Virus record (IMG/VR): IMGVR_UViG_3300020463_000009
Span: 45,064 to 109,063 of that record
Source of the DNA: a virus
Direction: 5' to 3' (one strand)
DNA: 64,000 bases
A program made the position numbers and the translations under genes. Of the stretch, positions 36,424 through 36,497 are shown in pieces; position 1 is the stretch's first letter; every line of letters starts with the position of its first letter. Under the pieces are notes generated by a model that saw only the letters and a list, made by a program, of their open reading frames with translations, was not told the DNA's origin and did no database searches.

Positions 36424-36497
36424 GCGGCTATCGTATAAAAGTATTACGGCGGGTTACCAACTCGCAGACGTAGGAGCGTTACCTACTAGCCGCTCCA
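36424..36497 (+). tRNA. tRNA-Gly(ACC), atypical D and T loops
   Basis: Acceptor GCGGCTA/TAGCCGC + T + CCA; D arm GTA..TAC; anticodon arm GCGGG-TTACCAA-CTCGC; T arm GTAGG-AGCGTTA-CCTAC. Confidence 0.88.

Follow-up and report, generated by a model that had tools for sequence, protein, structure and literature searches.

The question raised by positions 36424-36497 (+) of the window, the 64,000-nucleotide stretch of a 109-kb virus record analyzed here (IMG/VR IMGVR_UViG_3300020463_000009, positions 45,064-109,063), is whether a segment that reads as a tRNA-Gly with the anticodon ACC and an unusual D/T elbow is a genuine tRNA gene, and whether the glycine that it would carry is used on the ribosome. 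According to PMC4928997, tRNA-Gly(ACC) is found in none of the three domains of life, and the anticodon loop of tRNA-Gly has been argued to be unable, on structural grounds, to accommodate A34. An engineered E. coli tRNA-Gly(ACC), which like the window tRNA places A34 in a four-fold box, was active in elongation (Boren et al., 1993, as cited in PMC4928997).

Direct reading gave a gene of 74 nt with an acceptor stem of 7 bp (GCGGCTA/TAGCCGC), a D arm GTAT/AAAAGTA/TTAC, an anticodon stem GCGGG/CTCGC, a 4-nt variable loop, and a T arm GTAGG/AGCGTTA/CCTAC (36470-36486). In the T stem, pairs 49-65, 50-64, and 51-63 are G-C, U-A, and A-U, respectively, the last being a predicted weak EF-Tu determinant in the ddG table of PMC3239215. 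The anticodon loop UUACCAA (36454-36460) places A34, C35, and C36 at 36456-36458, the discriminator T is found at 36494, and CCA is encoded at 36495-36497. These readings confirmed the encoded CCA, the ACC anticodon, the T loop, and the A51-U63 pair of a preliminary description of this DNA; its statement that all stems are intact held for the acceptor, anticodon, and T stems but not for the D stem, where, in the manner of T4-type tRNA-Gly, three Watson-Crick pairs are accompanied by U13.U22. The minimum-energy fold was the cloverleaf (z -3.2).

ARAGORN scoring, proposed earlier as a check, yielded no tRNA in the window and missed 36424-36497, and an Rfam scan of the window with default filters returned no match. 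With permissive filters, the Rfam tRNA model RF00005 scored 45.2 bits (E 1e-8; gathering score 29), and our own model R1 scored 96.3 bits. The elbow set of RF00005 (G18, G19, T54, Psi55, C56, A58) differs from that of the window tRNA, which has A18, G19, A54, G55, C56, and U58. Just a minority of the members of this atypical tRNA-Gly family are picked up by ARAGORN. With the Rfam tRNA model, the window gene was the sole tRNA in the entire virus record.

The nearest isolates to the window phage are the Pelagibacter phages Mosig and HTVC008M, and the same tRNA gene is present in both (86% and 76% identity, respectively). GenBank gives it as a hypothetical CDS in Mosig and leaves it unannotated in HTVC008M. 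The three tRNAs of the Mosig announcement form a canonical Pro/Arg/Leu cluster that does not include the atypical tRNA-Gly, and HTVC008M was given 0 tRNAs in a published table (PMC7029224); in the complete HTVC008M genome, the Rfam tRNA model recovered the atypical tRNA-Gly as the only tRNA. Because the tRNA-Gly(ACC) gene escapes standard tRNA finders and is overlooked in published annotations, phage tRNA censuses and the host predictions built on them are incomplete. When 151 sampled alphaproteobacterial genomes (one unpublished, G041) were searched, no family member turned up; what matched the family model best there was ordinary tRNA-Gly, with scores not above 70 bits.

Homologues were collected from IMG/VR using a D-arm/acceptor pattern with the anticodon left out (>119 loci) and a T-arm/acceptor pattern, which returned as many again; the family counts of at least 77 distinct genes and at least 186 loci are lower bounds. 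When 38 distinct relatives were aligned, 98.9% of the stem cells of the cloverleaf were paired, and double-sided (compensatory) changes were observed at 10 of the 20 pairs, in three helices. The covariation score was 0.506 compared to 0.159 in shuffles, 0 of 500 shuffles scored as high, and slid partners reached at most 0.11; the homologue alignment recommended in the preliminary description thus revealed no random decay. The glycine identity elements of the window tRNA (G1-C72, C2-G71, G3-C70, U73, C35, and C36) are all there, as previously stated, and G1-G4/C69-C72, U73, C35, and C36 showed no variation across the 38 relatives. Since the helices covary and the identity elements are invariant, this is a real tRNA-Gly whose structure is subject to purifying selection and whose glycine identity set is complete, and 36424-36497 is a genuine, conserved, and previously overlooked tRNA gene. 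The bacterial α2β2 GlyRS reads U73, the first four acceptor pairs, C35, and C36, and makes a single backbone contact with base 34 (PMC9908026). As all known identity elements are retained, we infer that the window tRNA would be glycylated by the α2β2 GlyRS of the host.

The D/T elbow had been described as dismantled, with a D loop lacking G18G19. By homology with the T4-like loop AATGGTA, the D loop AAAAGTA (36437-36443) reads A14, A15, A16, A18 (36440), G19 (36441), U20, and A21; direct reading and family comparison assign the T loop AGCGTTA (36475-36481) as A54, G55 (36476), C56 (36477), G57, U58, U59, and A60. G18 is indeed replaced by A, but G19 is kept. Canonical T4-like tRNA-Gly(UCC) genes with the D loop AATGGTA and the T loop TTCGATT share some contigs with the family (L011, L036, L071, and L079) and are also present in cyanophage S-SSM7, and compared to these genes, the family elbow shows the changes G18 to A and U55 to G. 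Because G19, C56, A18, and G55 are invariant across the 38 distinct relatives, the elbow is remodeled, not dismantled, and the outer G19-C56 pair is kept; positions 54 and 58 vary in the family (A-U in the window; G-G, U-A, U-U, and C-A elsewhere).

The identical double change was found in another, unrelated tRNA-Gly scaffold, which is host-like and of the GCC type, has the D arm GCTCAGTGGTAGAGC, and occurs in canonical form in L213 and L115. In the L166 group (L166:985-1059(-)) and in L169 (3367-3441), the elbow of this scaffold departs from the canonical form in just two bases, G18 to A and U55 to G, and in further-diverged forms (L180:756-830 and L192:2627-2701(-)), the D loop has converged to AAAAGTA or AAAAGCA. 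On account of this recurrence, A18 and G55 act like a co-varying tertiary pair with two or more separate origins. With the near-universal G18.Psi55 replaced in two independent tRNA-Gly scaffolds, nature has provided a clean test of the tRNA elbow, and the recurrent A18.G55 hints at a Gly-specific selective agent. The other tRNAs at the family loci (Thr, Ala, Arg, Pro, Asn, Ser, Leu, and Asp) are canonical.

A phage-encoded permuted tmRNA (RF04321, 105.9 bits) was also observed at L011:2979-3252(-). Its T loop is UGCGAUU, compared to the family consensus UUCGAUU, i.e., U55 is again changed to G, and the phage carrying it also has an atypical tRNA-Gly.

In a tree built with position 34 masked, the atypical genes formed one group set apart from the canonical T4-like genes (98% SH-aLRT), the two being sister groups. 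ACC was found in two supported clades, window/Mosig (99%) and HTVC008M/L008 (97%), with the GCC form nested within the latter; A34 was fixed throughout two well-supported clades comprising 17 distinct sequences. Canonical and atypical UCC genes adjoin at 7 nt in L079 and L004, which argues for a tandem duplication, and the comparison points to a derivation of the atypical lineage from T4-type tRNA-Gly(UCC) by duplication, in places tandem. The tree and the alignment with the canonical T4-like copies support the earlier view that the body derives from a Gly(UCC) type. T4-type tRNA-Gly(UCC) (L011, L036, L071, L079, and S-SSM7) and the window tRNA have in common the acceptor GCGG.T., the D arm GTATA...TATTAC, U13.U22, the 4-nt variable loop, U73, and the T4-like replication/lysozyme modules, whereas the former has G18G19, TTCGATT, and usually G51-C63, and the window tRNA has A18, G55, A54..U58, A51-U63, and ACC. 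The coexistence of canonical and atypical UCC copies, even in tandem, suggests that the atypical copy does something different.

The gene occupies at least four genomic sites: after cobS (HTVC008M type), just upstream of gp45 (window and Mosig), between gp44 and gp62, where the GCC form sits tightly between the stop codon of gp44 and the start codon of gp62, upstream of gp43 (a UCC form without CCA), and downstream of a lysozyme (another UCC form). In S-SSM7, a canonical tRNA-Gly is located at the gp43-upstream site. The lysozyme-tRNA adjacency in L011 and L025 was considered as a cell-wall link and rejected; we take this neighborhood to be ancestral T4 synteny.

Anticodon loops were compared among the at least 77 distinct atypical genes (at least 186 loci): TTTCCAA was found in 37, TTACCAA in 25 (67 loci), and TTGCCAA in 2 (15 loci), and a plain 7-nt CCC loop in none of the 77 distinct family genes listed. 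About 11 of these 77 have an abnormal anticodon loop with intact stems, the kinds being CTTCCCG (C32-G38 closure), loops of 5, 6, or 8 nt, TAACCAA (A33), and GTACCCC. With three exceptions (L196, L199, and L200), the genes with an ACC anticodon have a standard 7-nt loop with U33 and A37. Odd-loop members with intact stems were located at L192:5111-5185(-), L186:4168-4242, L199:5557-5631, and L210:9853-9927, with further odd-loop members at L194:3400-3474, L227:930-1003, L196:5666-5741, and L200:1661-1736(-); it is doubtful that these relatives are competent in decoding. In a low-GC subgroup, base 34 is C, U, or A among near-identical bodies.

The UCC copy upstream of gp45 is accompanied by a second tRNA-Gly (G34 or A34) between gp44 and gp62, which in three loci is a fully canonical tRNA-Gly(ACC). 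A targeted scan revealed canonical-bodied tRNA-Gly(ACC) at about 36 IMG/VR loci at least, in at least three lineages of low-GC uncultured phages (L206:3359-3433, L217:9558-9632, and L231:3083-3157; also L237-L273). All those listed have a GG D loop, a TTCGA/TTCAA T loop, and G51-C63. They are like the window tRNA in the TTACCAA loop, the glycine identity, and the GGT-rich phages that carry them, but differ in the normal GG/TTCGA elbow, G51-C63, and a GCC-type origin, the window tRNA having a T4-like body. Since fully canonical tRNA-Gly(ACC) occurs in at least three lineages, the ACC anticodon is independent of the odd elbow and appears to represent a recurrent decoding solution; ACC and the A18/G55 swap each arose more than once.

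A CDA-fold deaminase (PF00383) able to make I34 was not found in the three phage records searched (the window's, Mosig, and HTVC008M), and host TadA generally requires an ACG context, so A34 of the phage tRNA is probably unmodified. The unmodified-A34 tRNAs of Mycoplasma and mitochondria also have A34 in a four-fold box; they are active in elongation and read U best and maybe other bases. These are reduced-genome tRNAs and the E. coli ACC tRNA is a laboratory mutant, whereas the window tRNA is the product of a natural, long-conserved phage gene. A conserved natural tRNA-Gly(ACC) in pelagimyophages, viruses of the most abundant marine bacteria, which arose several times in AT-rich, GGT-rich phages, offers a natural system for studying decoding by unmodified A34.

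GGT is the dominant glycine codon of the window, as had been noted, with fractions of.70 GGT,.13 GGC,.15 GGA, and.02 GGG. An S21-based scan of genome contigs for a host stand-in returned no SAR11. The stand-in used was G390, a 1.3-Mb alphaproteobacterial genome (28% G+C, 32 tRNAs) that we take to be SAR11 on the basis of an exact match to a SAR11 16S probe and of its genome traits. Its GGT/GGC/GGA/GGG usage was.45/.10/.40/.05 in the whole genome and.50/.08/.38/.04 in the tuf-to-rplQ (EF-Tu-to-L17) cluster, both differing from phage usage (chi2 p 2e-77 and 1e-31, respectively). In the phage, T3/(T3+A3) was.83 for Gly compared to.43-.51 for Ala, Val, Thr, Pro, and Ser; the GGT shift is Gly-specific, and the other four-fold boxes are not so shifted. 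Avoidance of Shine-Dalgarno-like sequences was considered as the cause of the GGA depletion and rejected, since the phage shows no shortage of GAG, AGG, or GAGG. The stand-in has only canonical tRNA-Gly(GCC) and tRNA-Gly(UCC), the former in single copy. Phages carrying ACC or GCC forms showed GGT at.69-.74 and GGA at.10-.13, and UCC-only phages showed GGT at.46-.55 and GGA at.26-.35, a comparison confounded by phylogeny and host but consistent in direction. Among the loci listed, carriers of canonical-bodied ACC genes had GGT as the main Gly codon (.59-.69).

Upstream of the window tRNA, a predicted sigma-70-type promoter-like site (TTGACA-17 nt-TG-TATATT; 36388-36416, +) matches at 11 of 12 positions, with TG, and the end of its -10 hexamer lies 7 nt from tRNA position 1 (G1). 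Motif and spacing are conserved at about 20 distinct gp45-upstream loci, again ahead of the tRNA. Downstream, a GAGGAG Shine-Dalgarno sequence (36507-36512, +) begins 10 nt past CCA, and the gp45 sliding clamp (36522-37184, +; Pfam gp45-slide_C) starts 24 nt past CCA. Given the promoter-like site and the lack of a terminator between the tRNA and gp45, the tRNA is probably co-transcribed with gp45 as the first element of the clamp/clamp-loader transcript. The gene order is CobS-like ATPase, S21, Hsp20, an unknown 405-aa protein, tRNA, gp45, gp44, gp62, RegA, RimK-like ATP-grasp, and gp43, and the neighborhood is a T4-like pelagimyophage replication module.

The explanation that we favor, and regard as reasonably probable, is that of a functional phage tRNA-Gly used in translation and tuned to GGU. 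The tRNA would be made early, from a host-type promoter of its own that heads the gp45-gp44-gp62 replication operon, and would be charged by the host enzyme. It would read GGU by an A34:U Watson-Crick pair and possibly, less well, other GGN codons; GGU makes up 70% of the phage Gly codons, and for it the host would supply only the single-copy, wobbling tRNA-Gly(GCC). The lineage would have come from a duplicated T4-type tRNA-Gly(UCC), in which G18.Psi55 was replaced by A18.G55, G19-C56 was kept, and the strong G51-C63 was lost. Against a decoder stand the weak predicted EF-Tu binding and the abnormal loops of about 11 of the 77 listed genes. The A18/G55 swap alone does not mark a non-decoding tRNA, because it is also found in otherwise canonical GCC tRNAs with normal loops. 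The preliminary description had favored a charged tRNA that is kept off ribosomes, with a GGT decoder as an alternative; the occurrence of ACC in canonical bodies, of the swap in normal-loop GCC tRNAs, and of a GGT-specific codon shift relative to SAR11 disfavors diversion and leaves the GGT decoder as the best-supported reading.

A bolder proposal, to be held only tentatively, is that the A18.G55 lineage would provide abundant ocean phages with an orthogonal glycine system, favored by selection time and again because ordinary tRNA-Gly would be attacked, sequestered, or sensed via its elbow while streamlined marine bacteria are being infected, or else that the atypical copy would hand its glycine to a non-ribosomal acceptor. 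If the orthogonal-system reading were true, A34 would be the minimal way for one tRNA to serve the whole GGN box. Somewhat less probable still is a defense-evading or host-independent Gly decoder that still translates, the elbow and the odd loops of which would escape a factor targeting ordinary tRNA-Gly, either a host tRNA-targeting defense or a phage-induced shut-off; A34 or an unmodified U34 would let one resistant tRNA cover the whole GGN box. The identical two-base elbow change in two unrelated tRNA-Gly scaffolds fits such an escape, as do the canonical Thr, Ala, Arg, Pro, Asn, and Leu tRNAs at the same loci, the atypical sets, which always span all GGN codons (ACC alone, UCC alone, or UCC plus GCC), and the retention of the atypical tRNA-Gly as the sole tRNA of HTVC008M.

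Phage tRNAs that escape tRNA nucleases have precedent (PMC10264068, PMC11555353). Like the window tRNA, T5 tRNA-Tyr, which counters retron Eco7/PtuAB, and the anticodon-loop variants of mycobacteriophages are copies of host tRNA species with conserved changes, and in some genomes, the window-type tRNA is likewise the sole tRNA retained. However, the defense-evading tRNAs carry changes in the anticodon loop or stem that act against identified nucleases, with no known escape involving the elbow, whereas the changes of the window tRNA are in the elbow and no matching nuclease is known; a nuclease or toxin directed at tRNA-Gly is not known in SAR11. Moreover, some phages hold a canonical, presumably sensitive tRNA-Gly beside the atypical one, and because G55 is also present in a phage tmRNA, the pressure may not be Gly-specific.

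Another rival, which we consider unlikely, is a non-ribosomal glycyl carrier comparable to the staphylococcal non-proteogenic (NP) tRNA-Gly: charged, poorly bound by EF-Tu, and serving as donor to some transferase for cell-wall, DNA, or small-molecule modification. EF-Tu binding was predicted with a published additive ddG table for T-stem pairs based on E. coli and Thermus data (PMC3239215). The value for the window tRNA was -9.4 kcal/mol, 1.2-1.6 kcal/mol weaker than the -10.6 and -11.0 kcal/mol predicted for the tRNA-Gly of the host stand-in, in agreement with the earlier proposal that A51-U63 weakens binding, and close to the approximately -9.6 given for the S. aureus NP tRNA-Gly (bacterial tRNA-Gly mean, -10.8; PMC7826273). 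Within the family, predicted values were -9.1 to -9.7 for ACC genes, -8.1 to -9.5 for atypical UCC genes, and -10.0 for the GCC gene, and G51-C63 was present in 0 of 38 aligned atypical members; canonical phage copies ranged from -9.2 to -10.6.

The S. aureus NP tRNA-Gly is without G18-G19 and U55 and has a C32-G38 closed loop (PMC13443448). The likeness noted in the preliminary description is borne out insofar as the window tRNA has kept the glycine identity and lost G18 and U55, like the Staphylococcus NP species (NP1-3, the glycine donors of FemXAB), and shares with them the T stem pairs U50-A64/A51-U63, predicted to be weak EF-Tu determinants in the window tRNA. The NP species have also lost G19, have a C32-G38 closed loop and the anticodon UCC, and work with Fem transferases, whereas the window tRNA keeps G19-C56, has ACC in a standard 7-nt loop (U32...A38), and belongs to a phage, with no Fem gene found, whose host is a Gram-negative SAR11. 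A C32-G38-type closed loop was found only in distant relatives (L011 type). Those relatives with closed or shortened loops and intact stems, the tandem canonical and atypical paralogues, and the fact that GlyRS does not read position 34 are compatible with a carrier. However, a FemAB domain (PF02388) was absent from the window's record, Mosig, and HTVC008M and from the locus neighbors, and clustering of the neighbors of the 186 loci listed revealed the replication module and the usual auxiliary genes, with no conspicuous aminoacyl-tRNA-using family. DruA/GNAT genes also occur in cyanophages with canonical or no tRNA-Gly, the ACC genes other than L196, L199, and L200 have standard loops, and the anticodon tracks codon usage, with ACC recurring in canonical tRNAs.

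Less probable again is a mainly cis-acting tRNA-like element, an RNase P/RNase Z processing or stabilizing module with which the gp45-44-62 mRNA would begin (5′ side), any decoding being incidental. Such an element would agree with the position of gp45 directly downstream, at a median of 30 nt, in 104 of the 186 family loci listed, with the conserved promoter-like site, which would set the start at about tRNA position 1, and with the GCC copy squeezed between gp44 and gp62, but the gene is not tied to one site, and a processing signal would not need a conserved Gly identity set, anticodon loop, and CCA. A decaying pseudogene or chance cloverleaf, for which the failure of standard tRNA finders and the tabulated 0 tRNAs of HTVC008M might be cited, is refuted by the compensatory changes in three helices, and the loop TTACCAA is unchanged over the 25 distinct ACC genes listed, 67 loci, and two isolates.

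Several other features of the surrounding genes were observed. The window encodes translation-related proteins, namely peptide deformylase, S21, RegA, and RimK-like ATP-grasp (27783-28370, 33995-34204, 38655-39101, and 39073-40467, respectively), the last being fused to a Zn-protease-like domain. Two divergent DruA/DUF4338 paralogues (PF14236; 28402-29700 and 45079-46176) are located in the replication module, and GNAT and MT-A70 methyltransferase genes follow gp43 (43565-44092 and 44228-44758). Some Synechococcus myophages have homologues, and one of these carries the annotation "methylcarbamoylase mom". A DruA-2 homologue adjoins the tRNA in a few loci, and a specific link of DruA/DUF4338, GNAT, and MT-A70 to the tRNA was rejected since DruA is also present in cyanophages S-SSM7 (canonical tRNA-Gly) and S-SCSM2R (none nearby).

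The products of an operon at 51042-55972 of the window are a DUF6267 protein, adenylate kinase, a zeta-toxin/AAA_33-like kinase, and a 775-aa protein that combines Pol-beta nucleotidyltransferase and cytidylyltransferase-like domains; when this "ligase/kinase" operon (51-56 kb) was analyzed, it yielded no function and no clear match to RNA repair. HTVC008M-type phages have, after cobS and immediately upstream of the tRNA, a GC-rich hairpin that is conserved (CCGTGGGCAG...CCCACGG; L002:3950-4009, with homologues in L009, L064, L072, and L114) and that occupies the place of the gp45-site promoter.
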